This document shows, one piece after another, positions 800 to 32,248 of a DNA stretch of 57,591 bases (position 1 is its first letter; every line of letters begins with the position of its first letter). Position numbers and translations under genes: made by a program. Below the pieces are notes generated by a model that saw only the letters and a program-made list of their open reading frames with translations, was not told where the DNA came from and did no database searches. Origin of the DNA: a virus (lineage: Duplodnaviria > Caudoviricetes); IMG/VR virus record IMGVR_UViG_3300042892_000963, positions 1 to 57,591 of that record, one strand, 5' to 3'.

Positions 800-1633
800 A
801 TGCGTAGTCATTATTGGACATGTTCAAAATTTGCAGATTGGCTTCGTGGTTCGCCAAAACTCAAGTGTGGCACCAGTGAAGAATGGGATGCTTGGTATGC
901 CAGTTCAGCTAAAGCGCATCCTGTCCGTTATTGGGTCGCTGAAGAAGGCCTCGATCATCTCCAAAAATTTGTCTATTACATACCAGATAAACTAAATGAC
1001 GTTCGCTATTATATTAATAATCGCTGGGTTACTCGCAGTCATGCCCTTACTGCCCATCCCCGAGATATTAAACCGGGCACTTGGCGTGATGTGGGCAATC
1101 GCTTTCTTCCTTGTCTTTTCAACGAGCTTGTGGATTTTGTTGAAATAGAACAAGCATGGCATCACTGCATTTGGAGTGATGATGCTAAGACTAAATTTGA
1201 AACTCCGTGGTGGCGCAAGGGCTGGCTGCGTTGGAGAGCTTGGCGCTGTCCAGAAGCAGGTATGGAATACCTGCGTTGGGCTGAAACATTGACTAACGCT
1301 GAGTTTTTAGAAGAAGGTGAAAAGCATCTAGCTGAACCCACATATCAAGCCAAAGCCGCTAAAGAAATCATCGAGCTTTACACCTGGTGGACTGTTACCT
1401 ATCGCAATCGTCCAGACCCTATGGAAGCAAGTGGATGGTCAGCTCACTGTGATGCTATGCGTGTCAAGTATCCTGGCAGTTTCTTCTCTAGTCTAAATTC
1501 AAAAGATCCCGAAGACCGTAAAGCCAGCAACAAGGCTCATAAGCTGCTTAGTAAAATTGAAAAAGCCTATGAAAAGGAAGATGAAGAAATGATGATTCGC
1601 CTTATCAAGATTCGCGAAAGCCTGTGGACATAA
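800..1633 (+). CDS. hypothetical phage protein (Trp-rich)
   Basis: 277-aa ORF with AAGGA RBS, downstream of the promoter. Confidence 0.8.
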   Translation: MRSHYWTCSKFADWLRGSPKLKCGTSEEWDAWYASSAKAHPVRYWVAEEGLDHLQKFVYYIPDKLNDVRYYINNRWVTRSHALTAHPRDIKPGTWRDVGNRFLPCLFNELVDFVEIEQAWHHCIWSDDAKTKFETPWWRKGWLRWRAWRCPEAGMEYLRWAETLTNAEFLEEGEKHLAEPTYQAKAAKEIIELYTWWTVTYRNRPDPMEASGWSAHCDAMRVKYPGSFFSSLNSKDPEDRKASNKAHKLLSKIEKAYEKEDEEMMIRLIKIRESLWT

Positions 1634-1634
1634 C

Positions 1635-1856
1635 ATGAGCATACCAGATAACAATTCTCACAGTATTGAAGATCTCTATGCTAAGTATCTGCAGTTCACC
1701 GGAATCATGTTAGAAGAATATAAAGATATTGAGATAGCGGGTATTATGATCACACAAGCTCTCAGCATGTATAAAACTGTGTTAGCAGAAGAAGATTATC
1801 AACGAATGGTAAAAAGCATATATGAAAGAAGAAACGATGTCAAAACCTTCAACTGA
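1635..1856 (+). CDS. hypothetical protein
   Basis: Tightly packed ORF within the operon. Confidence 0.7.
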   Translation: MSIPDNNSHSIEDLYAKYLQFTGIMLEEYKDIEIAGIMITQALSMYKTVLAEEDYQRMVKSIYERRNDVKTFN

Positions 1857-2235
1857 ACTTACACCTCAGACTCCTGCACAAGGAATCCTCAAACGTAATA
1901 GTTGGGGAGATGCCATCACCTATCAAGTCACTTGTGAATGTCAAGATGCCAATCACGATCACAATGTTTGGGTCGAAGCTGATGATCATCGTGTGACTGT
2001 TACTACCTATACCACACAAAAGTCTCAATGGTGGAGTCTCAATCGTTGGCAGACCATTTGGCGATTGCTGACCAAAGGATATGTTGAGTACGAAGCTAAC
2101 ATCATTATGACTGAGCAACAGGCTCTTAATTATGCAGAAACACTGAAGAAAGCAATCAAAGATGTTAGTGCATTCAAACAACCAAAAGAGAATAGCGCAG
2201 CCGTTAAGGCAGCATCTGAACAAGACTGTGTATGA
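1837..2235 (+). CDS. hypothetical protein
   Basis: Overlapping packed ORF; start at 1822 or 1837. Confidence 0.7.
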   Translation: MSKPSTELTPQTPAQGILKRNSWGDAITYQVTCECQDANHDHNVWVEADDHRVTVTTYTTQKSQWWSLNRWQTIWRLLTKGYVEYEANIIMTEQQALNYAETLKKAIKDVSAFKQPKENSAAVKAASEQDCV

Positions 2236-2804
2236 CCAAAGTATCAAAAAGTCCCCAACGACATTCCTTCCAAAAAGAAGGATATGTTAACCGTCAGACA
2301 GAAAAAAACGAACCCATCAACGACGATTATCTCGACCTGTTTGATAAGATTCTGGACGAACACAAGCATAAGTTTGATGACCCGCAACGCCGTATAAACA
2401 ATATGGAATACGATCTACTGACCACTGATTGGATTCTAGACAAAGTTCGTGCTGAAGAATCATACGCTCAAAACATGTATGCGGCAATGTGCAATAACGA
2501 CTTCATCAAATTAGAAGTTATTCCTATCCTTAGACAAGATCCAGACAAAGACTATTGGTCAGCTTCCTGGCGCAGTGCCGGGGGCATCGTTGCAGACATG
2601 CGTGAACAAGGCGACTATATTGATTGGTACTGCTCAGGAATGGGCGGGCTTAGTGGGTATGACAAGGATAGTGAAACATATGAAGAGTGGCAAGCTCGTA
2701 CTAAGTATGTTCCTGAAGGGTTAGTAACCGACGAGATCCGGAATGATCTCCAACGTCTTGGCTGGGCAATAGTGCCTGGTGGAGATTGGGAAAAATTTAC
2801 TTAA
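2232..2804 (+). CDS. hypothetical protein
   Basis: ATGA-coupled 190-aa ORF. Confidence 0.75.
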   Translation: MTKVSKSPQRHSFQKEGYVNRQTEKNEPINDDYLDLFDKILDEHKHKFDDPQRRINNMEYDLLTTDWILDKVRAEESYAQNMYAAMCNNDFIKLEVIPILRQDPDKDYWSASWRSAGGIVADMREQGDYIDWYCSGMGGLSGYDKDSETYEEWQARTKYVPEGLVTDEIRNDLQRLGWAIVPGGDWEKFT

Positions 2805-2822
2805 GGAGATTGTGTTAGTATC

Positions 2823-3017
2823 ATGAACTTTGAACTATACGAAGTTTGGGCGGTGGATGAAGCCGGTCACGAAGAATTGGTAGAAACCACCAGCAGTAGA
2901 AAAGAAGCGTTGGAGATAGCAGAAGCTAATCTCGGATTGGGTGTTATGGAAGCTGTGGTTTATCAAGAAGATGAAAACGGTGACCTACATGAAATCAAAC
3001 GATTTAATCATGGTTGA
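2823..3017 (+). CDS. small acidic hypothetical protein
   Basis: AAGGAG upstream; 64 aa. Confidence 0.7.
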   Translation: MNFELYEVWAVDEAGHEELVETTSSRKEALEIAEANLGLGVMEAVVYQEDENGDLHEIKRFNHG

Positions 3018-3042
3018 CAACCTCGCCGTTTGGTGCTATAAT
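3014..3042 (+). promoter_or_regulatory. sigma70-type promoter with extended -10
   Basis: TTGACA(3014-3019)-17 bp-TATAAT(3037-3042), preceded by TG-N. Confidence 0.9.
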
Positions 3043-3073
3043 ATATGTATTGTTTAACAACAGGAGTGACTAA

Positions 3074-4249
3074 ATGGTAACCAAACTAAAAAAAGCATCT
3101 ATTGCGATCCGCCAAAACAAAGGGCGTGATCTAAGTCCAAAATGGGACGATCACGAGACCATGACTGCTGATGAATTTAGTCGACACTTCCGGATGGCCA
3201 TGAGTTATTATCGTTTGGAAACCAGCGGCAAAGAACTCAAACCCAAAGTTATTAATTGGATGAGCAGCCAGAACTATCCAAAAGATGTTATTAAAGCGTT
3301 TAAAGATACCAAAGACAATCGCTGTGGCACAACCGTAGGTGCTATTGCTGCTAATCTGTTGCGTGGTATGCCGGCAATTCGTGCAGACTTCAACGAAGGT
3401 CGCAACACCGCAGAATGGTTGAGTAAATCTATTGCTAAAATTATCGAAGAAGGCAAACATGATGAGACTGAGTCCGAAGAAGGCGCAGTAGAAATCAAGC
3501 CAGCAGTTTACACTCCGTCTATTCAAGAGAGACTTCGTGAAGTTGCATTGGGCATGACTGAAGAGATCGAAGATGCCATTGAGTCATTCCAAACAGATCC
3601 AGATGCATTTGATCCAAAAGCATTTAAACTGTTAAATCTTCTGCGTGGTCGTCAAGCCAAAGCTGCTCACGCTCGTATTATTAAAGACTTGTACACCCGT
3701 AACTATGAAGAATTGGTAGAAGCAGCCACTACCAAAGACGAACAGTTAAAAGAAGGGTATTCTCATTTGAGCAAGGCCAACTTGAAAAAGATCACGCTGT
3801 TCTACAGCGAAATCCTTTCAGCCTGCGATATGCTGGCTCAAGAAGCCAAGGTCAATAAAAAGCCTCGTGCCAAGAAGCCTACTGATAAAGCCAAGGTTGT
3901 GGCCAAGATGAAGTATCTCAAACAGGACGAGACACTTAAATTAGTTTCTATTAATCCGCAGGACATCATCGGTGCTAAAGAACTGTGGATCTACAATGTT
4001 AAGACACGTAAATTGGGCAAGTATGTGGCTGCGGAATTCAACGATCTCGGAGTTAAAGGCACCACAATTACTGGATCTGATCCAATGAAAAGTGTTCAGA
4101 AAACCCTGCGCAAGCCAGAAGAGCAGCTTAAAGAGTTCAAAGCAGCTGGCAAAGTGCAGTTACGCAAGTTCTTAGACGATATCAAAGCTGTGGATATCAA
4201 ACTCAACGGCAGGATCAACGAGGATACTGTGCTACTCAAAGTACAATAA
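3074..4249 (+). CDS. hypothetical phage protein (basic C-terminal domain)
   Basis: 391 aa, AGGAG RBS, own promoter and terminator. Confidence 0.85.
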   Translation: MVTKLKKASIAIRQNKGRDLSPKWDDHETMTADEFSRHFRMAMSYYRLETSGKELKPKVINWMSSQNYPKDVIKAFKDTKDNRCGTTVGAIAANLLRGMPAIRADFNEGRNTAEWLSKSIAKIIEEGKHDETESEEGAVEIKPAVYTPSIQERLREVALGMTEEIEDAIESFQTDPDAFDPKAFKLLNLLRGRQAKAAHARIIKDLYTRNYEELVEAATTKDEQLKEGYSHLSKANLKKITLFYSEILSACDMLAQEAKVNKKPRAKKPTDKAKVVAKMKYLKQDETLKLVSINPQDIIGAKELWIYNVKTRKLGKYVAAEFNDLGVKGTTITGSDPMKSVQKTLRKPEEQLKEFKAAGKVQLRKFLDDIKAVDIKLNGRINEDTVLLKVQ

Positions 4250-4266
4250 CAAAGTAAATTCTCAGT

Positions 4267-4292
4267 AAAAAGCGGGCTTCGGTCCGCTTTTT
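4267..4292. terminator. intrinsic terminator, potentially bidirectional
   Basis: AAAAAGCGGGC-TTCG-GTCCGCTTTTT: cUUCGg tetraloop with flanking A and T tracts. Confidence 0.9.
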
Positions 4293-4302
4293 CGTTGGCG
4301 GA

Positions 4303-4308
4303 TAAATA
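4303..4308 (+). promoter_or_regulatory. T4-like late promoter core TAAATA
   Basis: gaTAAATA directly after the terminator and 7 nt before ATG 4316. The same core recurs before many genes (e.g. 7641, 10842, ~12381, ~24452, ~34530, 42490, 42880, 46775, ~46969). Confidence 0.7.
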
Positions 4309-4315
4309 CATTACT

Positions 4316-5410
4316 ATGAGCAATGTCAATAATTTATTAGCCGCACTAGGCGATGAGATCAACGCAATCGCACAAACCGCTGCCCCAGATGTCAAAGAAA
4401 TCGCAAGGAAAATGCCGTTTCGATCCCTTTCAGGAGATCACATTTCCGGAGGCAAAATACAAAACTTTGCCAGCACTGGTATCACAGATACCGCTGTAAA
4501 AACTCAGCTTACTGTAAGCAACGACGGTGTAACTGTTAAGAATCTATTTGTAGAAAACATAGATAATCTCACAGTCGCAGGCACGTTAAAAACCAAGATT
4601 CTAGAAGTTGATGAGATACGTGCTGACATCAAGTTTGAAAAAGATGTGCCTATCACGTTTTCAGGAGATACCTTAGATGGCAAAGGACTGCTGTGGGCTG
4701 GACAAGGTAACACCAAACAGCTGATATTCAATTCAAACCCTGACAGGTTTTTTATATCAGAACACATTGATCTAGCACGTGGTAAATCGATTTCTGTCAA
4801 CAACATTAAAATAATAGATGAGTTAGAGTTAGGTCCTACTATAACTAAAAGTAATCTTAGAGAAGTTGGACGTCTAAAGGGTTTGATAGTAGACGGTGGG
4901 TTTAATGTTGGCCAGTACATGGTGTTTGATGCTAACACCAGTCGATTAGGATTAGGCACAGAAAACCCCAATGCCGCTCTGAGCATTGTAGACGATGGTG
5001 TAGAATTAGTGTTAGGCGCCAAGGATACTGTAAAAGCATTTATTGGCACATATGCCAGCAATAATTTAGAATTAGGCACAGACAATACTGCAAGAATAAT
5101 TATTTCATCTAGCGGCAACATAACACTAGGCAATCCGACAATTGCACCAGTTCAGGTCAGTGTGCATGGGAAACTGTCAGTGCGAGTATCAACTCCAGAT
5201 CCAGAAGTTGATCTTCATGTCAACGGTGCGGTGAGATTCAACAACAGACTGCAAAAATATGACAGTACGTATCCCACATCTGGATCGTACAACGAAGGCG
5301 ACATCATATGGAACATACAACCAAGAATGAACTCCTACGTGGGTTGGGTTTGTATTCAAACCGGAGCACCCGGTCTGTGGTCTCCGTTTGGTAAAATTGG
5401 AAATTCATAA
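4316..5410 (+). CDS. putative virion/tail-fibre-type protein (paralog 1)
   Basis: Beta-rich repeats (RLGLGTENPNAAL, LHVNG) and C-terminal GWVC..GAPGLW; late promoter upstream. Confidence 0.65.
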   Translation: MSNVNNLLAALGDEINAIAQTAAPDVKEIARKMPFRSLSGDHISGGKIQNFASTGITDTAVKTQLTVSNDGVTVKNLFVENIDNLTVAGTLKTKILEVDEIRADIKFEKDVPITFSGDTLDGKGLLWAGQGNTKQLIFNSNPDRFFISEHIDLARGKSISVNNIKIIDELELGPTITKSNLREVGRLKGLIVDGGFNVGQYMVFDANTSRLGLGTENPNAALSIVDDGVELVLGAKDTVKAFIGTYASNNLELGTDNTARIIISSSGNITLGNPTIAPVQVSVHGKLSVRVSTPDPEVDLHVNGAVRFNNRLQKYDSTYPTSGSYNEGDIIWNIQPRMNSYVGWVCIQTGAPGLWSPFGKIGNS

Positions 5411-5411
5411 T

Positions 5412-6254
5412 ATGGCAAGTCAAGAAAAATTAAATGCCCTAACAACCTTGTTGCAAGAAGTACTTCAGGAAGGTCAAGACATCAACTCTGCTGAATTTCC
5501 TTACATAGTTATCAAAGGTGATATCAATGGCAAAGGCATACTGTGGAGTGGGCAAGGACATAATAAACAATTTTTGTTTAACACTGACCCTGATAGATTT
5601 TTTGTTTCCGAAAGTATCGATTTAGCAAAAAATAAAAACCTATCTATCAATAACATCAAAATACTAGACGAAAAAGAACTAGGAGCTACCGTAACAAAAA
5701 GCAGTCTCCGAGAAGTTGGACATCTCAAAGGATTGATAGTAGACGGTGGGTTTAGTGTAAATCAGTATTTGATCTATGACTCCAACACTGATCGCCTAGG
5801 GTTAGGCACAGATCAACCCAAAGCCGCTGTTAACATTATAGATCAAAATGTAGACATTGTTATAGGTGCATCATCGCCAAACACTGCTATGATTGGCACT
5901 TACAATTACACAGATTTAGACATCGGCACTGACCACACTGCACGGATTTCTATCAAGGCCGGTGGCAACGTAGTTATAGGAAACCCTGCGACAGGGGATA
6001 CTAAAGTTGCTATCATAGGTTCTCTAGCTATCAATGTCAGCAGTGCTGATCCACGCAGCAGTCTGCATGTTAACGGAGCATTAAAGTTCAATGACAAACT
6101 GCACCTTGGAGGCAACGAACCGCCTGTCAGTGGCGGGTTCAACGAAGGTGATGTAGTATGGAACAATTATCCGACCCCTGGAAAATTTGTGGGTTGGGTA
6201 TGTACCAAATCAGGCAGTCCTGGCATATGGAACGGATTCGGCAGAATTGAATAA
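5412..6254 (+). CDS. putative virion/tail-fibre-type protein (paralog 2)
   Basis: Colinear with the previous ORF (GKGILWSGQG, PDRFF, LREVG.LKGLIVDGGF, GWVC..G.PG.W). Confidence 0.65.
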   Translation: MASQEKLNALTTLLQEVLQEGQDINSAEFPYIVIKGDINGKGILWSGQGHNKQFLFNTDPDRFFVSESIDLAKNKNLSINNIKILDEKELGATVTKSSLREVGHLKGLIVDGGFSVNQYLIYDSNTDRLGLGTDQPKAAVNIIDQNVDIVIGASSPNTAMIGTYNYTDLDIGTDHTARISIKAGGNVVIGNPATGDTKVAIIGSLAINVSSADPRSSLHVNGALKFNDKLHLGGNEPPVSGGFNEGDVVWNNYPTPGKFVGWVCTKSGSPGIWNGFGRIE

Positions 6255-6847
6255 TGCCACAAGCATTGGTAATCGGCAATGGCGAAAGTAGACGTCATGT
6301 TGATGTTAGTACATACACTCAACATATACTCATAGGCTGCAATGCCATACACAGAGATCTCAATGTCGATCATTTGATCTGTTGTGATCGTAGAATGGCA
6401 GAAGAAGCTGTAAATAATCCCAATACCAAAGACACAGAAATCTATGTACGTGATCATTGGCATCACTACTTTAGAAAAATAAGAAAAAACAAAAACATCA
6501 ATCTGTTACCCGAGGTACCAACTACAGGCGAAGCAAAAGTCAACCAAGCTGAACATTGGGGCAGTGGTGGATACGCTGTGTTATTGGCGGCTGCATTAGG
6601 TCATCAAGAAGTCACTATGATTGGTTTTGATCTGTATCCAATTGATCATGCGGTGAACAACATCTACAAAGGCACTGTGAATTATGCCAGAGCTGGATCG
6701 CAGGCAGTGGATCCCAGCTATTGGGTTTATCAGATTGCATCAGTATTCACACATTATCCCGATACCACGTTTGTGATCTATAATAGACAGGGGTGGACAA
6801 TGCCATCAGAATGGAGAAAAAATAATGTGGAATTCATTGCATTATAA
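6254..6847 (+). CDS. CstII/GT42- or Maf/MptE-fold putative CMP-sugar transferase
   Basis: VIGNGESR, GCNA and SGGYAVLLAAALGHQEVTMIGFDLY resemble the CstII motifs GNGPS, RCN and SG.YM...A.ALGY.EIYL.GIDFY. Confidence 0.6.
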   Translation: MPQALVIGNGESRRHVDVSTYTQHILIGCNAIHRDLNVDHLICCDRRMAEEAVNNPNTKDTEIYVRDHWHHYFRKIRKNKNINLLPEVPTTGEAKVNQAEHWGSGGYAVLLAAALGHQEVTMIGFDLYPIDHAVNNIYKGTVNYARAGSQAVDPSYWVYQIASVFTHYPDTTFVIYNRQGWTMPSEWRKNNVEFIAL

Positions 6848-6865
6848 ATAGAAATGTAATATAAT
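6837..6865 (+). promoter_or_regulatory. sigma70-type promoter with a nested late TATAAATA
   Basis: TTGCAT(6837-6842)-17 bp-TATAAT(6860-6865); TATAAATA at 6843-6850 lies in the spacer. Confidence 0.75.
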
Positions 6866-6883
6866 ATTACAATACACACACAA

Positions 6884-6928
6884 AGAGGACTCTATGGCAT
6901 CATCCCTCTCTAAACACTCTGCAGTCAT
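6884..6928 (+). ncRNA. candidate preQ1-I-like pseudoknot leader of queD
   Basis: Stem AGAGG/CCTCT, loop ending CATC, tail CTAAACACTC, loop-tail complementarity ATGGC/GTCAT. Confidence 0.5.
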
Positions 6929-6960
6929 CAAACTTGCTACCTATATAAAGGAGACTAGAG

Positions 6961-7485
6961 ATGGCAAAATATCTTTCAACAAAAACTTACGGCAACGACC
7001 GCGGACTTTCATGCTGTTTTAGACAGTGGAGAAGTACACATAGTCACTGCTCATTACTACACGGATACTCAATCGGTATCAAATTAATTTTCGAATCAGA
7101 AACCTTAGACGACCGCAATTGGGTCATGGATTTCGGCGGCCTCAAAGCGTTTAAAGAGTGGTCAGAGTGGCAGTTTGATCATACTACTGTAATGGGCAGT
7201 GATGATCCTCATCTAGAAAAGTTCAAAGAACTGGCTAAGTTAGGCAAGCAAGCAGAAGGCGGTGTACTGGATCTACGTATTGTAGAAGCAGTAGGTTGCG
7301 AAAAGTTTGCTGAGTTGGCTTATCGAACTATGAACGAAATCCTAGAAGCATACAAAGAAGGTCGAGGTTGGACACATCCAGACGGTCGTGTGTTTGAAGC
7401 ACGTTATCCTGTTGGTCAAGGTGTCAACCTTCGCAGTGCTGAAGTATTTGAACACGCTGGCAACTCGGCAATTTATGAGGCCTAA
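6961..7485 (+). CDS. queD: 6-carboxy-5,6,7,8-tetrahydropterin synthase (QueD/PTPS family)
   Basis: CSLLHGY (CxxxHGx), WVMDFGGLK, FDH and GCEKFAE motifs. Confidence 0.88.
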   Translation: MAKYLSTKTYGNDRGLSCCFRQWRSTHSHCSLLHGYSIGIKLIFESETLDDRNWVMDFGGLKAFKEWSEWQFDHTTVMGSDDPHLEKFKELAKLGKQAEGGVLDLRIVEAVGCEKFAELAYRTMNEILEAYKEGRGWTHPDGRVFEARYPVGQGVNLRSAEVFEHAGNSAIYEA

Positions 7486-7643
7486 TGAAAAGGCTTTGGC
7501 GTTTATGGGCTAAAGCACTAGGTGAAAAATCAGGTGCTACTGATCGAGAAGCTGATTCAGTAGCACTTGTTCGTACAGTTATCATACTGACCTATATTAT
7601 TACAAACCTGTTTATTATCGCTGGTGTCATTAGACATTGGTAA
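7485..7643 (+). CDS. small membrane protein (not in ORF track)
   Basis: [15 protein letters not shown]...IIAGVIRHW, 52 aa, one TM segment; TAATG-coupled to queD. Confidence 0.7.
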
Positions 7644-7651
7644 ATAATAAT

Positions 7652-8479
7652 ATGCGTACATTTAATATCAACCAACTTACTATCAGTAATAACTTACCGT
7701 TTGTTCTTATTGCTGGTCCGTGTCAAATAGAAAGTCAGGCCCATGCAGAAGACACCTGTGCCAGACTTATTGCTATCACAGCATTGCTGGGCATTCCTCT
7801 AATCTACAAAAGTAGTTTTGACAAAGCTAATCGTTCTAGTATTAGCACTAAACGAGGTGTTGGCATTGAAGAAGGATTACAGATTCTCAATACCATCAAG
7901 CACACTTTTGGAGTGCCTGTTTTAACAGATATTCACGAAAGTTATCAAGCACGAGAATGTGCTGATGCAGGTATTGATATATTACAAATACCTGCGTTCT
8001 TATGTAGACAAACTGATCTATTGTTAGCAGCTGGAGAAACTGGCTGTGCAATCAATGTCAAGAAGGGACAGTTCCTTGCTCCCCACGATATGAAAAACGT
8101 TGCTGCAAAAATTGCGTCAACTGGCAATGAACGCATTATGCTATGCGAAAGAGGATACACTCATGGATACAATAATCTTGTGGTTGACATGCGCAGTCTA
8201 CCTATTATGGCAAGCACTGGCTATCCAGTGGTCTTTGATGCCACTCATTCTGTTCAACAGCCTGGGGGAATGGGAGAAAGATCTGGAGGAGATAGGACCA
8301 TGGTCCCGTACTTGGCGAGAGCTGCTGTAGCCACAGGATGTGTGTCTACACTGTTTATGGAATGTCACGAAGATCCAGATCGCGCTCCTAGCGATGGACC
8401 CAACATGATCAAGCTAGACGACCTCAGCGATATTTTAAAAGACCTGGTAGCCATAGATGAAATTGTCAAAAGAAGATAG
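7652..8479 (+). CDS. kdsA: Kdo-8-phosphate synthase
   Basis: [48 protein letters not shown] and SDGPN motifs. Confidence 0.95.
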
Positions 8480-9281
8480 AGCTGGTTGGTCTAAAGAACA
8501 AAGACGGTTTTATAAAGCAAATGGGTATCCCATGCCGTCTGCAGTAATCGGTGAATCGCCACCCGCCGATCATGATCCTAACACAAAAATTACAGTTCTC
8601 TGCGTGAGATTCGGCAACAAGTACGGCCGTGAATATGTAGAGCGTCTGCGTAATATGGTTGCAAGGCATCTCACAGTTCCTTATGAATTTGCCTGCCTCA
8701 CTGACGATCAACATGATATCGCCGGAGTACGCAAGATATATCAACCCAATGCCAACTATGCCAGAGGATGGTGGCACAAGGTTCACATGTTTGATTCTGC
8801 CTTACCTCTCAGAGGAAGAATACTCTATCTCGATCTCGATGTGGTCATTCATGCCAATATGAACAAGCTCACAGGATATCATCCCAACAGCTTTATAGGT
8901 ATTCACGATTTCAACAGAAAATTTTTCCCCAGTTGGAACTATCTCAACAGCTCAGTGTTAGCATGGACTCACGGAACTCAAAGCCATATCTTTAATCAGT
9001 TCAAACTCAACCCATCAGAAGCTCAACGGCTGCAAGGAGATCAAGATTGGATTTGGAAAATAGCTAAAGATAGAATGACGTTTTGGCCTAGAGATTGGAT
9101 TATGAGTTACAAATGGGAGATTCGAAGCAGAGACGAGCTCACTATGGCTAACGGCAGAAGGCAGTTCAAAACGGTAAGACACGATGTTAGCCCTCCCTCG
9201 AATTGTAGTATTGCGGTATTTCACGGTGAACCAAATCCGCAGGATGTTCAGGATAGATTTGTAGTTGACAACTGGCGGTAA
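8457..9281 (+). CDS. GT-A fold glycosyltransferase (GT8-like)
   Basis: LYLDLDVVI DxD motif, NSSV, GDQDWI and FHGEPNP. Confidence 0.75.
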
Positions 9282-9299: not shown

Positions 9300-9530
9300 A
9301 TGAAAATTACTACACATCAGAGTCAAATTCGCACAATCAAACGAGACGATCCCCGTTTTCGTATCGTTGACAAATTTGTAACCTGTGGTAGAGCAGGATT
9401 TGAAATTTCAAAACAATGCCCACGTGAGTACGGATTGATTTTATCTGAATGTATCGATCGAGGATGGATTCAACCTGTGGCTTATATGACAGAACGTGAA
9501 CTTCTTATTTCGGGATTATCTAATGATTAA
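9300..9530 (+). CDS. hypothetical protein
   Basis: 76-aa ORF directly after the promoter. Confidence 0.7.
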   Translation: MKITTHQSQIRTIKRDDPRFRIVDKFVTCGRAGFEISKQCPREYGLILSECIDRGWIQPVAYMTERELLISGLSND

Positions 9531-10587
9531 ACGCATAGGCTTTGCCTGCAAATGGATTGACGGTCCTAGTCAGATCAACGGTGTCAAACAAAAAGACAAC
9601 TGCAAACAGTACAACACTGGCAGTACCACAGTAGCATGGTTGAAGCGCCAAGAACCCAAAGTAGCAGAACAGAAGCTGTGGGATCTAATGGTCCAGAATA
9701 TTGAATCAATTCGTAAACTTGTAGAGAAAGTGGGTGATCTAGATGACGAACTTCGTATGGTACGTCTCGGCAGCGATATTCTGCCTGTATACACTGAGCG
9801 CAATTACAGCTGGTTTTGGCGTCAAGCTGATGTGGTCAAATATGCCGAAACACATTTTGCCGAGGTGGGGCGTATTGCTAGAGATCGTAACGTTCGTCTT
9901 AGTTTTCATCCTGGCCAGTTCACTGTTCTTGCAAGTGATAATCCCGATATTGTTGATCGTAGCGTAGAGGAGTTTGAATATCATGTGGACATGGCTCGCT
10001 GGATGGGATATGGTAAAACGTTTCAAGACTTTAAGATCAATGTGCATATCGCTGGCCGACAAGGCCCATCCGGTATCCGTAGTGCTTTGGCACGGATGAG
10101 CCCAGAGGCGCGAAACTGTCTTACTATCGAAAACGATGAGATGACATGGGGTATTGAACACAGCATCGAATTGGTCAAAGACTGTGCATTGGTCTTAGAC
10201 ATTCATCATCACTGGATTAAAACTGGAGAATATATTGACCCGAATGACGACCGTGTTAAGCGGATTATTGATAGTTGGCGTGGTGTGCGCCCTGTGTTAC
10301 ATTATAGTGTATCACGGGAAGACTGCCTTGATGCTCATCCCGGACACATCCGTCCCGATCTTTCGACCCTCTTAGAATCCGGACATAAGAAAGCAAAACT
10401 CAGAGCTCATTCAAACTTCTACTGGAATACAGCAGTGAATGAATGGGCACTGAGCTTTAGAGACCATTTCGACATCATGTGCGAAAGCAAGGCCAAAAAC
10501 TTGGCCTCATTTGCTCTACACGATCAAGACAAAACTGTTAAACAGGTTTTGGCTTGCGAGGAGCCTTTGGCGCTGGTGCTTTCTTAA
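9523..10587 (+). CDS. uvsE: UV-damage endonuclease (UvsE/UVDE)
   Basis: RIGFAC, RLGSDILP, RLSFHPGQF, LTIENDE, LDIHHH and MCESKAKNLA motifs. Confidence 0.9.
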   Translation: MIKRIGFACKWIDGPSQINGVKQKDNCKQYNTGSTTVAWLKRQEPKVAEQKLWDLMVQNIESIRKLVEKVGDLDDELRMVRLGSDILPVYTERNYSWFWRQADVVKYAETHFAEVGRIARDRNVRLSFHPGQFTVLASDNPDIVDRSVEEFEYHVDMARWMGYGKTFQDFKINVHIAGRQGPSGIRSALARMSPEARNCLTIENDEMTWGIEHSIELVKDCALVLDIHHHWIKTGEYIDPNDDRVKRIIDSWRGVRPVLHYSVSREDCLDAHPGHIRPDLSTLLESGHKKAKLRAHSNFYWNTAVNEWALSFRDHFDIMCESKAKNLASFALHDQDKTVKQVLACEEPLALVLS

Positions 10588-29705: not shown

Positions 29706-30077
29706 ATGACTAATCCGTTTCGGGATCAAGAAAAATTTATGCGGGCCTGCGATCAAGCAGTAGACTCCGCAAACACAGATCAATTCAACATGTATCTTGG
29801 ATTGATTGAAGAAGAAGCCGAAGAACTCAATCAAGCTATCATCAACAAGGATCGTGTAGAAATTCTAGATGCGCTCGTTGACATGCTGGTTGTGACCATA
29901 GGTGCTATTCACTCAGCCGGATTTGATGCTGAAGGTGCATGGAAAGAAGTTATGAATACAAACTTTGCCAAGATTGATAAAAAGACCGGTAAAGTAATCA
30001 AACGTGAAGATGGCAAAGTGCTCAAGCCTGACGGGTGGACTCCGCCTAATTTAAAACCGTTTTTGAGTAGAAAATGA
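29706..30077 (+). CDS. MazG-like/PRA-PH nucleotide pyrophosphohydrolase
   Basis: LIEEEAEEL, EILDALVD, EVMNTNFAK and REDGKVLKP. Confidence 0.85.
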   Translation: MTNPFRDQEKFMRACDQAVDSANTDQFNMYLGLIEEEAEELNQAIINKDRVEILDALVDMLVVTIGAIHSAGFDAEGAWKEVMNTNFAKIDKKTGKVIKREDGKVLKPDGWTPPNLKPFLSRK

Positions 30078-30520
30078 AAACCGGATTTACCTGCTCAACG
30101 TTTGACCTGTTTCACGCAGGTCACATTATGATGCTCAAAGAAGCAAAAACACAATGCGATCATTTGATTGTAGGGTTACAAACTGATCCTACTATTGATC
30201 GGCCCGGTATTAAAAACAAACCAGTTCAAAGTGTGTTTGAACGCTACGAACAACTCAAGGCCTGTAAGTACATTGACGAAATCCTTGTCTATGAAACAGA
30301 AGACGACCTTGTAAACATCTTGCTTTCTTATCCTATTAATGTTAGAATACTAGGACAGGAATATGAAAACGAAGATTTCACAGGACGACGGGAATGTGTA
30401 GATCGCAGAATTGAATTTTATTTCAATAAACGTGAACATAACTTTTCAACCAGCGAACTACGACAACGTGTAATTGCTGCCGAAATTAATAAAGGACTAA
30501 CTAATGGAAGTTCAACCTAA
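30074..30520 (+). CDS. TagD-like cytidylyltransferase
   Basis: TFDLFHAGH (HxGH), LIVGLQTD, ER...L.ACKYID and FSTSELR. Confidence 0.85.
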   Translation: MKTGFTCSTFDLFHAGHIMMLKEAKTQCDHLIVGLQTDPTIDRPGIKNKPVQSVFERYEQLKACKYIDEILVYETEDDLVNILLSYPINVRILGQEYENEDFTGRRECVDRRIEFYFNKREHNFSTSELRQRVIAAEINKGLTNGSST

Positions 30521-30859: not shown

Positions 30860-31779
30860 AAGAACTATGGGTTGAGAAGTACCGTCCTAAAAAGATGGAA
30901 GGGTATGTATGGCGCGATTCTGCGCAACGGAAACAGGTCGAAACATGGATTAAAGAAAAAAGTATTCCGCATCTGCTGTTGAGTGGTCCGCCAGGTATTG
31001 GTAAAACCACTATGGCTAAAATTTTAGTTAACGAAATTGAAATTGAAGATGCTGATGTACTAGAAGTAAACGCCAGTCGAGAAACAGGTATTGATTTCAT
31101 CCGTAACAAGATAGTTCCATTTATCAGCAGTATTGCTTGGGGTTCATTCAAGGTAGTACTGTTAGATGAAGCAGATCGTCTGAGTCCGCAGGCACAGGAT
31201 TCTTTGAAAGGTATCATAGAAGAATATTCAAACTACGCTAGATTTGTTCTAACCTGTAATAACCCTAATATGATTGTGCCCGCTCTGCACAGTCGCTGCC
31301 AGCAATGGCATTTCTCAAAACTTGATCAAACAGAGTTTACCGCTAGAGCAGCTACAGTGTTAGTTGAAGAAAACATTGAATTTGATTTAGAGACATTAGA
31401 TATGTATGTGTCGACTACATATCCGGATCTGCGTAAATGTTTGAATCTACTGCAACAGAATACCAACGATGCAAAACTACATAGTGCTACTAAGGAAGAT
31501 GCAGGATCTGCGGAGTGGAAATTTGACATGGTAGAGCTGTTCAGAGCAGGCAAAATACAAGAAGCACGTAAGATGCTATGTGGCAAGCTACGTTCAGAAG
31601 AGATGCAAGAAGTGTATGTGTGGCTCTACAACCATTTAGATATCTTTGGCTCAGAAGAAAATCAAGACAAAGCTCTGCATGTCATCAAGCAGGCTCTAGT
31701 AGATCACACATTGATTATTGATCCAGAAATTAATTTAGCATCTACTCTGGTGAAATTATCAAAGATTAATGCCGGATAA
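30856..31779 (+). CDS. clamp loader AAA+ subunit (RFC small / T4 gp44-like)
   Basis: LWVEKYRP, GPPGIGKT, LDEAD and SRC motifs. Confidence 0.92.
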   Translation: MKELWVEKYRPKKMEGYVWRDSAQRKQVETWIKEKSIPHLLLSGPPGIGKTTMAKILVNEIEIEDADVLEVNASRETGIDFIRNKIVPFISSIAWGSFKVVLLDEADRLSPQAQDSLKGIIEEYSNYARFVLTCNNPNMIVPALHSRCQQWHFSKLDQTEFTARAATVLVEENIEFDLETLDMYVSTTYPDLRKCLNLLQQNTNDAKLHSATKEDAGSAEWKFDMVELFRAGKIQEARKMLCGKLRSEEMQEVYVWLYNHLDIFGSEENQDKALHVIKQALVDHTLIIDPEINLASTLVKLSKINAG

Positions 31780-32248
31780 AAAATCTAATCTTGCTAAAGG
31801 CAGAAATAGTTTTGATGCTGAAATAGACGGCACACTGATACCGTTCTTTAATAGGAACGTATCAGAGTATCCCACGGAAGCAGGCGGTGTTAAGTTTGAT
31901 CTAGTTCCTGTTACCAAACAAAAAGATCTAATGATCAATCATGCTAGGATGTATGCCCAGCAAGAATACGATCGTATCATGGAATTAGTCGCTGTGTTGG
32001 AAGGGCAAGCACAGGCTATTAAACGTAGATTAGAAATCACAGACGCTGTTCACGCTGCGGTATATCAGTTTCAACCAGTAATGGGCAACGTCTATTGGTT
32101 GGCGTGGGACAAAAGAAAGCAGCACACATTATTAACTCAGAATGGGCCCAACGATTGGTCCAGCAGTGCTCCGGAAGATTATGAATACCAAGCTCAGGTA
32201 AAGTATATGGGCGACCACACCTGGATGGAAATCATCGATGAATCCTAA
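31769..32248 (+). CDS. hypothetical protein
   Basis: 159-aa packed ORF. Confidence 0.75.
   Translation: MPDKKSNLAKGRNSFDAEIDGTLIPFFNRNVSEYPTEAGGVKFDLVPVTKQKDLMINHARMYAQQEYDRIMELVAVLEGQAQAIKRRLEITDAVHAAVYQFQPVMGNVYWLAWDKRKQHTLLTQNGPNDWSSSAPEDYEYQAQVKYMGDHTWMEIIDES

Follow-up and report, generated by a model that had tools for sequence, protein, structure and literature searches.

As reviewed in PMC11625349, class I preQ1 riboswitches are H-type pseudoknots whose ligand lies above a conserved G-C floor; a strictly conserved C located just before the 3′ strand of P1 (P1′) forms a pair with it, and its other edge is read by the initial U of L1 together with an A of the A-rich L3. The same review places the Shine-Dalgarno sequence within P2 and distinguishes types I–III, with either a UC or an AC dinucleotide before P1′ (PMC11625349). 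The window analysed here, i.e., the whole stretch of 57,591 nt, is an entire viral record, itself a fragment rated 16% complete by CheckV, and in it a pseudoknot of comparable layout lies ahead of a queD-like gene. On balance, this leader (≈nt 6872–6960) is probably an H-type pseudoknot aptamer acting as a phage-specific, riboswitch-like translational control element; “variant riboswitch” is the best reading of the pseudoknot, with ligand binding being putative.

Other small regulatory RNAs offer terms of comparison. The leader of phage T4 gene 32 contains a pseudoknot that nucleates binding of the phage's own single-strand-binding protein; it is likewise of the H type, at the 5′ end of a phage mRNA and devoted to translational control, but it has no sequence likeness to the queD element. 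The guanidine-III riboswitch is an ON switch, and THF-II, found before folE in bacteria, folds as a hairpin interrupted by an internal loop. SAM-II/SAM-V, guanidine-III and NAD+-II are also one-pseudoknot aptamers of about 50 nt that control access to the ribosome-binding site (cf. PMC7749635), but they share neither conserved sequences nor gene associations with the phage element, and none was matched by cmscan here. As for THF-II (folE motif), PMC11317127 describes it as acting in cis on the GTP cyclohydrolase/pterin branch and as recognising a base with a 2-amino-4-oxo face, thus showing that pterins can serve as riboswitch ligands; unlike the present element, it is not a pseudoknot before queD in phages, and it gave no cmscan match in the phage leader.

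In the window, a 113-nt spacer separates the stop codon of an unassigned ORF at nt 6254–6847 from the 174-codon queD-like gene. The encoded protein scores above the cut-off of the Pfam family profile PF01242 (46.7 bits, cut-off 22.4) and matches phrog_2389, annotated as “QueD-like” (E 1.1e-32); with the QueD equivalog TIGR03367 (CPH4 synthase; NCBIfam) it reaches 34.4 bits, below the cut-off of 89.25. The closest solved structure is that of E. coli QueD (4NTM, E 0.0075), whose Cys is aligned with a Cys of the window protein, the surrounding motif being C-S-L-L-H-G-Y versus Cys-x3-His-Gly-His in QueD. The name queD is thus used on the basis of family likeness and of the FolE/QueE neighbours present in relatives. 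The closest named QueD proteins, from Acinetobacter, Rhizobium and Pseudomonas phages, are less than 50% identical, and in phage Iggy queD is internal to a queE-queC-queD-folE-dpdA cluster.

The 52-aa ORF that follows queD, similar to a PHROG of unknown function and hydrophobic in its C-terminal half, is probably co-translated with it; similar ORFs start directly 3′ of queD in two contigs carrying the other queD subfamily (L229, L161). Directly downstream, on the same strand (nt 7637–9281 and 9496–10587), are encoded a KDO-8-phosphate synthase (KdsA equivalog, 410.9 bits), a phage-type glycosyltransferase (phrog_1962) and a UvdE-family UV endonuclease. On the upstream side, the adjacent plus-strand ORFs at nt 4295–5410 and 5388–6254 match tail-fibre or virion PHROGs and share long similar stretches (e.g., “...GKG(L/I)LW(A/S)GQG..KQ(L/F)(I/L)FN..PDRFF(I/V)SE.IDLA...”), being probably, as judged from this similarity, paralogous fibre genes.

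Inspection of the leader retrieved the structural elements that an earlier note on this DNA had drawn, namely a 5-bp stem P1 (AGAGG/CCTCT), a 16-nt loop (nt 6889–6904, ACTCTATGGCATCATC), a tail (CTAAACACTCTGC, nt 6910–6922) followed by AGTCATC (nt 6923–6929), and the pairing of ATGGC in the loop with GTCAT in the tail to form P2, whose pairs in the window are A-U, U-A, G-C, G-U and C-G (Table 1). The window leader taken alone has a minimum free energy of −13.8 kcal/mol (z = 0.07), and 95 of 200 shuffled sequences fold equally well; since the single-sequence fold is no better than that of shuffles, support for the structure must come from comparison.

Table 1. Features of the queD leader and of the genes it precedes in the window, with the platform types found behind the aptamer.
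Feature	Position (nt)	Strand	Remarks
Promoter-like site: TTGCAT (6837–6842), 17-nt spacer, TATAAT (6860–6865)	6837–6865	+	read directly
P1 5′ strand, AGAGG	6884–6888	+	partner 6905–6909
L1, ACTCT	6889–6893	+	second and third bases (C, U) invariant
P2 5′ strand, ATGGC (pseudoknot helix)	6894–6898	+	partner 6924–6928
L2, TCATC	6900–6904	+	C6904, candidate specificity base
P1 3′ strand, CCTCT	6905–6909	+	covariation
L3	6910–6922	+	A-rich octamer CTAAACAC, then near-invariant pentamer TCTGC
P2 3′ strand, GTCAT (6924–6928); with C6929, anti-start-codon strand	6924–6929	+	
Shine-Dalgarno, AAGGAG	6948–6953	+	7 nt upstream of ATG
Start-codon region, GATGGC	6960–6965	+	complementary to 6924–6929
queD-like gene, 174 aa, PTPS/T-fold family	6961–7485	+	profile matches
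52-aa membrane-type ORF, phrog_1679 (E 2.7e-26)	7485–7643	+	overlaps queD stop codon
Platform type 1: long-range helix to AUGGC (window type)			
Platform type 2: “CATTGTT/AACAATG” hairpin			
Platform type 3: “CCTATG/CATAGG” hairpin over Shine-Dalgarno			

The window queD-like gene has relatives on more than 594 viral contigs; among the best 80 loci, which were kept as a first set, the complete motif was present in 74, cut by the contig end in one (L064) and missing from five. A second set was chosen through a different queD subfamily (protein about 40% identical), with no RNA pattern used, and the motif was found in 67 of its 80 loci, two of the 13 misses being cut by contig ends. In an alignment of the 48 distinct leaders of the first set, built with MAFFT without reference to any structure and scored for the 12 proposed pairs, 88.1% of the cells were paired versus 33.6–51.4% with slid partners, the covariation score was 0.398 versus at most 0.116 for slid partners and was reached by none of 500 shuffles, and both sides had changed in nine of the 12 pairs. 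A covariance model (R1) in which P2 was the sole structure included aligned 100 distinct copies with 90.3% of the cells paired, and P1, absent from the model, was paired in 100% of them. The second queD subfamily (45 distinct copies) likewise gave 90.3% paired, with none of 500 shuffles reaching the observed value. Over the three alignments, slid partners paired in 30–52% of the cells overall, versus 88–90% for the true ones, a level that 0/500 shuffles attained. A lack of conservation and covariation in homologous leaders, which the earlier note had named as evidence against its proposal, was not encountered: at the level of aligned sequences, these comparisons show that P1 and P2 both exist and covary.

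The changes are distributed over both helices. The third pair of P1 is CG in 62, AU in 21 and UA in 17 of the 100 copies, and the second pair flips from GC to CG in four of the 45 copies of the second subfamily; P1 always comprises 5 bp ending in two invariant G-C pairs, its closing pair being G-C in 100/100. P2 consists of 5–7 bp in one fixed register, all seven columns having changed on both sides in the MAFFT and R1 alignments, and it includes G-U pairs (13–16 per column among the 100 copies) that fit only RNA of the plus strand.

For the unpaired segments, positions were counted in 110 distinct cores chosen by pattern, and these counts are to be read beside the gene-chosen alignments since the search pattern itself forces UCUGC and TCAYC. 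L1 ranges from 4 to 9 nt, with a variable first base (A39/C28/U43) followed by C and T in 110/110 cores each. L2 reads UCAYC, sometimes with one additional base, and the C preceding the 3′ strand of P1 is invariant both in the gene-chosen set and in 110/110 cores, the base before that C being U in 83, C in 19 and A in 8 of these cores. In the gene-chosen alignment L3 spans 13 nt, of which the first eight are A-rich (always A at the third, fifth and seventh) and the last five read UCUGC; exceptions in the pentamer are TCTGA (L350) and TCTAC (L016, L322). Altogether, about 20 unpaired positions are invariant or nearly so in both gene subfamilies, part of this conservation reflecting shared descent, the contigs being from related phages. 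Hardly any change is thus seen in the unpaired L2 (UCAYC) and L3 (A.A.AY-UCUGC), although identity of the encoded protein ranges from 29 to 95%. The second and third bases of L2 (C, A) can pair with G12 and U11 of L3 in 100% of the copies (C6901-G6921 and A6902-U6920 in the window), and in one lineage (L016, L322) the C-G pair is replaced on both sides by U-A; we tentatively regard these two pairs as an extension of P2. Were this pairing real, P2 would be longer and L2 would be reduced to “YC”, that is, to the dinucleotide found before P1′ in class I preQ1 riboswitches (PMC11625349).

The loop of the window happens to include an ATG at nt 6894, 5 nt downstream of AGAGG, a spacing at which AGAGG could be the ribosome-binding site of a 42-codon leader-peptide ORF (nt 6894–7022) with the structure being incidental. 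This is hardly credible, as any ATG occurs in only 24 of 106 distinct loops and the loop covaries with nt 6923–6929 as RNA and not as codons. The upstream ORF was rejected as a candidate, not being conserved in relatives.

On the window itself, model R1 retrieved one copy only (51.8 bits), and of five long relatives, four (one of them a 357-kb record rated complete) again yielded a single copy, before queD; in the fifth, with no R1 match, queD lies directly behind folE. The same association emerged when the downstream gene was disregarded. A gene-blind scan of all viral contigs with a 23-letter degenerate motif retrieved at least 120 loci, and the 80 listed were all full-length R1 matches (38–69 bits), with a queD-like ORF (29–95% identical to the window protein) downstream in 79; in the remaining one, the contig ends 84 nt past the motif. 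Conversely, in ten motif-less loci queD follows right behind a queE-like gene (nine loci) or folE (one). Where the motif is missing, queD is thus mostly an internal gene, and the element therefore goes with a queD that opens its own transcript. In two contigs an ORF was observed between the motif and queD (L235, nt 4617–5339; L228, nt 6409–6750), encoding a 240-aa methyltransferase-like protein (named by eye) and a 113-aa cupin-like protein, respectively, so that operons headed by the element can be longer.

Outside viral contigs, the same pattern gave 48 matches in 185,579 prokaryote genomes, which is about the number expected by chance. True full-length copies among them were only four (L114, L128, L141, L151), all with the same leader-queD arrangement on MAG contigs of 5.5–8 kb labelled as Bacteroidota, which may be phage contigs. 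Within the cultured-phage collection, megablast of nt 6254–8479 gave no match, blastn (word size 11) of a high-scoring copy retrieved only 31-nt chance matches in Klebsiella phage spanin genes, and no isolated phage carrying the motif was found. A literature search of main texts found no published description of such an element.

A single-copy motif found essentially in phage contigs only, before one gene, is also what a protein operator would look like, and phage translational operators of this size exist. The pseudoknot would then be bound by the QueD-like enzyme or by another phage or host protein, with binding deciding the access to the start codon, as in T4 gene 32. We consider this unlikely, though worth keeping in mind, because the unpaired bases are invariant while the protein drops to 29% identity across two subfamilies, because one aptamer carries several expression platforms, and because a C on a G-C floor next to an A-rich L3 is a feature of metabolite aptamers.

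Compared with class I preQ1 riboswitches, the phage aptamer has the same order of elements (P1, L1, P2, L2, P1′, L3, P2′) in an H-type pseudoknot, with a 5-bp P1, a P2 formed between loop and tail, a strictly conserved C before the 3′ strand of P1, and a G-C closing pair which, by analogy, could serve as the floor of the pocket; both precede a gene of the queuosine/7-deazaguanine pathway and act on translation, this being predicted for the phage element. The two differ in other parts. L1 is of 2–3 nt and starts with a conserved U (U6, which reads N9 of the ligand) in preQ1-I, versus 4–9 nt with a variable first base in the phage element; P2 has 3–4 bp versus 5–7 bp (9–10 with the tentative extension); and the A-rich L3 of 6–8 nt that in preQ1-I runs straight into P2 has a loose counterpart in the A-rich octamer, which here is separated from P2 by the five near-invariant bases UCUGC. 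Moreover, in preQ1-I the Shine-Dalgarno sequence lies in P2, or a terminator follows, giving an OFF switch, whereas in the phage leader it lies outside P2 and an ON switch is predicted. Unlike preQ1-I, the phage element is known only from uncultured phage contigs.

The check with the Rfam preQ1 models that the earlier note had proposed turned out negative, no match being obtained even at E ≤ 10 in the leader (nt 6780–7020) or in 12 relatives. With Rfam 15, no family reached its gathering score in the whole window (39 bits for RF00522); at E ≤ 10 the sole match in the region 6780–7020 was to a Bacteroides sRNA (14 bits, minus strand, by chance), no family was matched at the motif of the 12 relatives, and RF00522 on the five long relatives gave matches of 8–14 bits, none of them at the queD leader. 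The preQ1-I-like layout claimed in the note thus holds for the 5-bp P1, the invariant C at the loop end and, loosely, the A-rich tail, but not for membership in RF00522, where there is no score. A divergent but ordinary class I preQ1 riboswitch, binding preQ1 or preQ0 and turning queD off, would account for the shared topology, the que gene downstream, the UC/AC before P1′, the G-C floor and the A-rich L3; it is nonetheless quite improbable, given that RF00522 scores nothing at the leader, that the Shine-Dalgarno sequence is 20 nt beyond P2, that the 3′ strand of P2 competes with the start-codon helix, as in an ON switch, and that L1, P2 and L3 are all longer, with UCUGC as an extra invariant stretch. 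With the covariance model, the L1 uridine and the platform all failing, we do not file the phage element as a preQ1-I member; by analogy, it may work like a relative of the preQ1-I fold with its output inverted.

This inversion is suggested by the 3′ strand of P2, which pairs with the start codon instead of holding the Shine-Dalgarno sequence. In the minimum-energy fold of the window leader, GTCATC (nt 6924–6929) pairs with GATGGC (nt 6960–6965). When the P2 3′ strand with its following bases was matched to the ribosome-binding region in 116 distinct platforms, the longest duplex averaged 6.56 bp versus 4.42 bp for shuffled strands, and it covered the AUG in 112; the mean duplex energy was −4.8 kcal/mol for P2 and −9.0 kcal/mol for the sequestering helix. 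When the P2 strands were blocked, the modelled unpaired probability of the segment from Shine-Dalgarno to AUG rose from 0.44 to 0.54 (of 126 leaders, 65 gained more than 0.1 and eight became less accessible), while platforms of the window type showed no gain (0.35 to 0.33); the ON logic rests here on imposed constraints, because nested-fold models cannot treat pseudoknots. The simplest reading of these models is that the closed form would win by default and that stabilisation of the knot would open the start site, i.e., an ON switch, a direction that the earlier note had not anticipated.

At least three platform types, each built on this logic, are found behind the one aptamer (Table 1), and no terminator-like site was found between the motif and the ATG in the window. 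With “CATTGTT...AACAATG” as platform, the sequestering hairpin could persist in shortened form and stack on P2, giving an OFF switch. Riboswitches are characterised by a conserved aptamer that lies ahead of a metabolic gene, in its 5′ leader, and is followed by variable platforms, and this is the arrangement found here.

In the putative riboswitch, the P2 3′ strand of the ligand-free RNA would pair with the AUG region, this being the stronger helix, and so close the ribosome-binding site. A small molecule stacking on the G6888-C6905 floor and pairing with C6904 would stabilise the knot, which would draw nt 6924–6928 off the AUG and turn translation on.

As regards transcription, the promoter-like site (Table 1) combines a perfect −10 hexamer with a −35 matching TTGACA at 3/6 positions, too weak for the site to appear in a consensus scan; the start predicted in the earlier note, about 12 nt before P1, agrees with this −10. 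A TAYAMT or ATAARTA box occurs within 25 nt of P1 in 81 of 127 distinct upstream contexts, mostly 5–8 nt away, which agrees with the motif marking the start of a transcript led by queD. We also observed a TATAAATA box, the phage T4 late-promoter sequence, at nt 6843–6850, inside the spacer of the window promoter, and ATAA(A/G)TA boxes 4–13 nt before P1 in 35 of the 127 distinct relatives (within 25 nt in 44). The sequences of these boxes hint at a phage-specific type of promoter. Contigs from three runs recorded as metatranscriptomes, belonging to three studies, cover the leader from about nt 6891–6893 into queD, while a fourth run, probably of DNA, covers only parts of queD, and nt 6787–6868 are covered by none of the four. 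We take this as presence in RNA libraries and draw no transcript start from it, because these are assembled contigs, DNA carry-over is possible and missing cover proves nothing.

Judging from the promoter-like boxes, the knot lies only a few bases from where transcription probably starts. Together with the unremarkable single-sequence energy and with the fact that both conformers can be drawn without a ligand, this would suit a constitutive structure that protects the 5′ end of the mRNA, or that sets a fixed low or temperature-dependent level of translation by means of the competing start-codon helix. We regard such a ligand-free role as rather improbable, since a mere stabiliser or thermometer would have no need of the near-invariant unpaired positions maintained in two subfamilies.

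For the variant riboswitch, candidate ligands were looked for in the pathway to which queD belongs. QueC, TGT and FolE were not found in the window, a record rated only 16% complete. The complete 357-kb relative (G001) encodes FolE and a 290-aa radical-SAM protein located two genes on, for which the only NCBIfam matches with E < 1e-7 are five QueE models, all below their cut-offs; a phosphoribosyltransferase gene lies about 1.5 kb from folE, and queD is 64 kb away, behind the motif. Neither QueC nor TGT/DpdA was detected in G001, whether by profile search or with phage Iggy proteins as tblastn queries. Other relatives have the motif and queD side by side with folE, the queE-like gene and the phosphoribosyltransferase gene. 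The DNA-modification context put forward in the earlier note was therefore recovered in part, FolE, QueE-like and QueD proteins being present in relatives but QueC and TGT/DpdA not being detected.

Several further observations concern these clusters. The genes for FolE, the QueE-like protein, QueD and the phosphoribosyltransferase (PF00156) are clustered in three different arrangements (G001, nt ≈205,082–209,052, L288; L033, nt 1171–4392; L016, nt 1449–5796), and in L016 an ORF with a NUMOD3 motif, of the homing-endonuclease type, lies between the phosphoribosyltransferase and queE-like genes (nt 4044–4961). Radical-SAM genes are numerous in the jumbo-phage contigs G001–G005 (13 matches in G001, 19 in G003), mostly within one region of 20–30 kb. 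In relatives the que cluster is flanked by cytidylyltransferase-like and DUF2452 genes, homologues of which are present on the plus strand of the window at nt 30077–30499 and 31769–32242 (55% and 61% identity, tblastn).

Judging from gene content, a set in which QueC and TGT/DpdA were not detected suggests a 7-deazapurine route operating at the nucleotide level. Such a route would resemble the pathways of deazapurine antibiotics. With FolE, QueE-like, QueD and phosphoribosyltransferase present and QueC and TGT/DpdA undetected, the product is likely to be CDG or a nucleotide derived from it. The ligand would most likely be a guanine-faced base from the FolE-QueD-QueE pathway; candidates are a 7-deazapurine (CDG, preQ0, preQ1), guanine, or the pterins made by FolE/QueD, among which we count the QueD substrate, dihydroneopterin triphosphate. 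The guanine-like face common to all of them could pair with C6904, as in the preQ1-I pocket. An ON switch would be unusual for a biosynthetic gene if the ligand were the end product, and this counts against the riboswitch reading preferred here; by inference, ON control fits a substrate-type signal better.

A more specific proposal, which we put forward tentatively and consider possible but doubtful, is that of a new phage-only class, distantly modelled on preQ1-I, with feed-forward ON control. Such a switch would sense a guanine-faced intermediate of the phage's own FolE-QueD-QueE pathway, such as CDG or the dihydroneopterin triphosphate made by FolE, and free queD translation only when a pool of it exists, the pathway leading to 7-deazapurine nucleotides through the clustered phosphoribosyltransferase and not through QueC plus DpdA/TGT base exchange. 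If true, this would imply that modified DNA, or a nucleotide analogue, is reached by a pre-replicative route.

To our knowledge, phage-carried riboswitches for the phage's own metabolic genes are rare, and a riboswitch class confined to phages would be new. The element is about 50 nt long, abundant and available in hundreds of natural variants, hence readily open to probing and reporter assays, and through it the best-studied minimal aptamer fold could gain a relative of the ON type. The QueD step commits a GTP-derived pterin to 7-deazapurines, which phages use against DNA restriction; the gene set of the relatives (FolE, QueE-like, QueD and phosphoribosyltransferase, with QueC/TGT not found) hints at an undescribed nucleotide-level route to them, and the ligand of the element would reveal what the phage monitors during infection.
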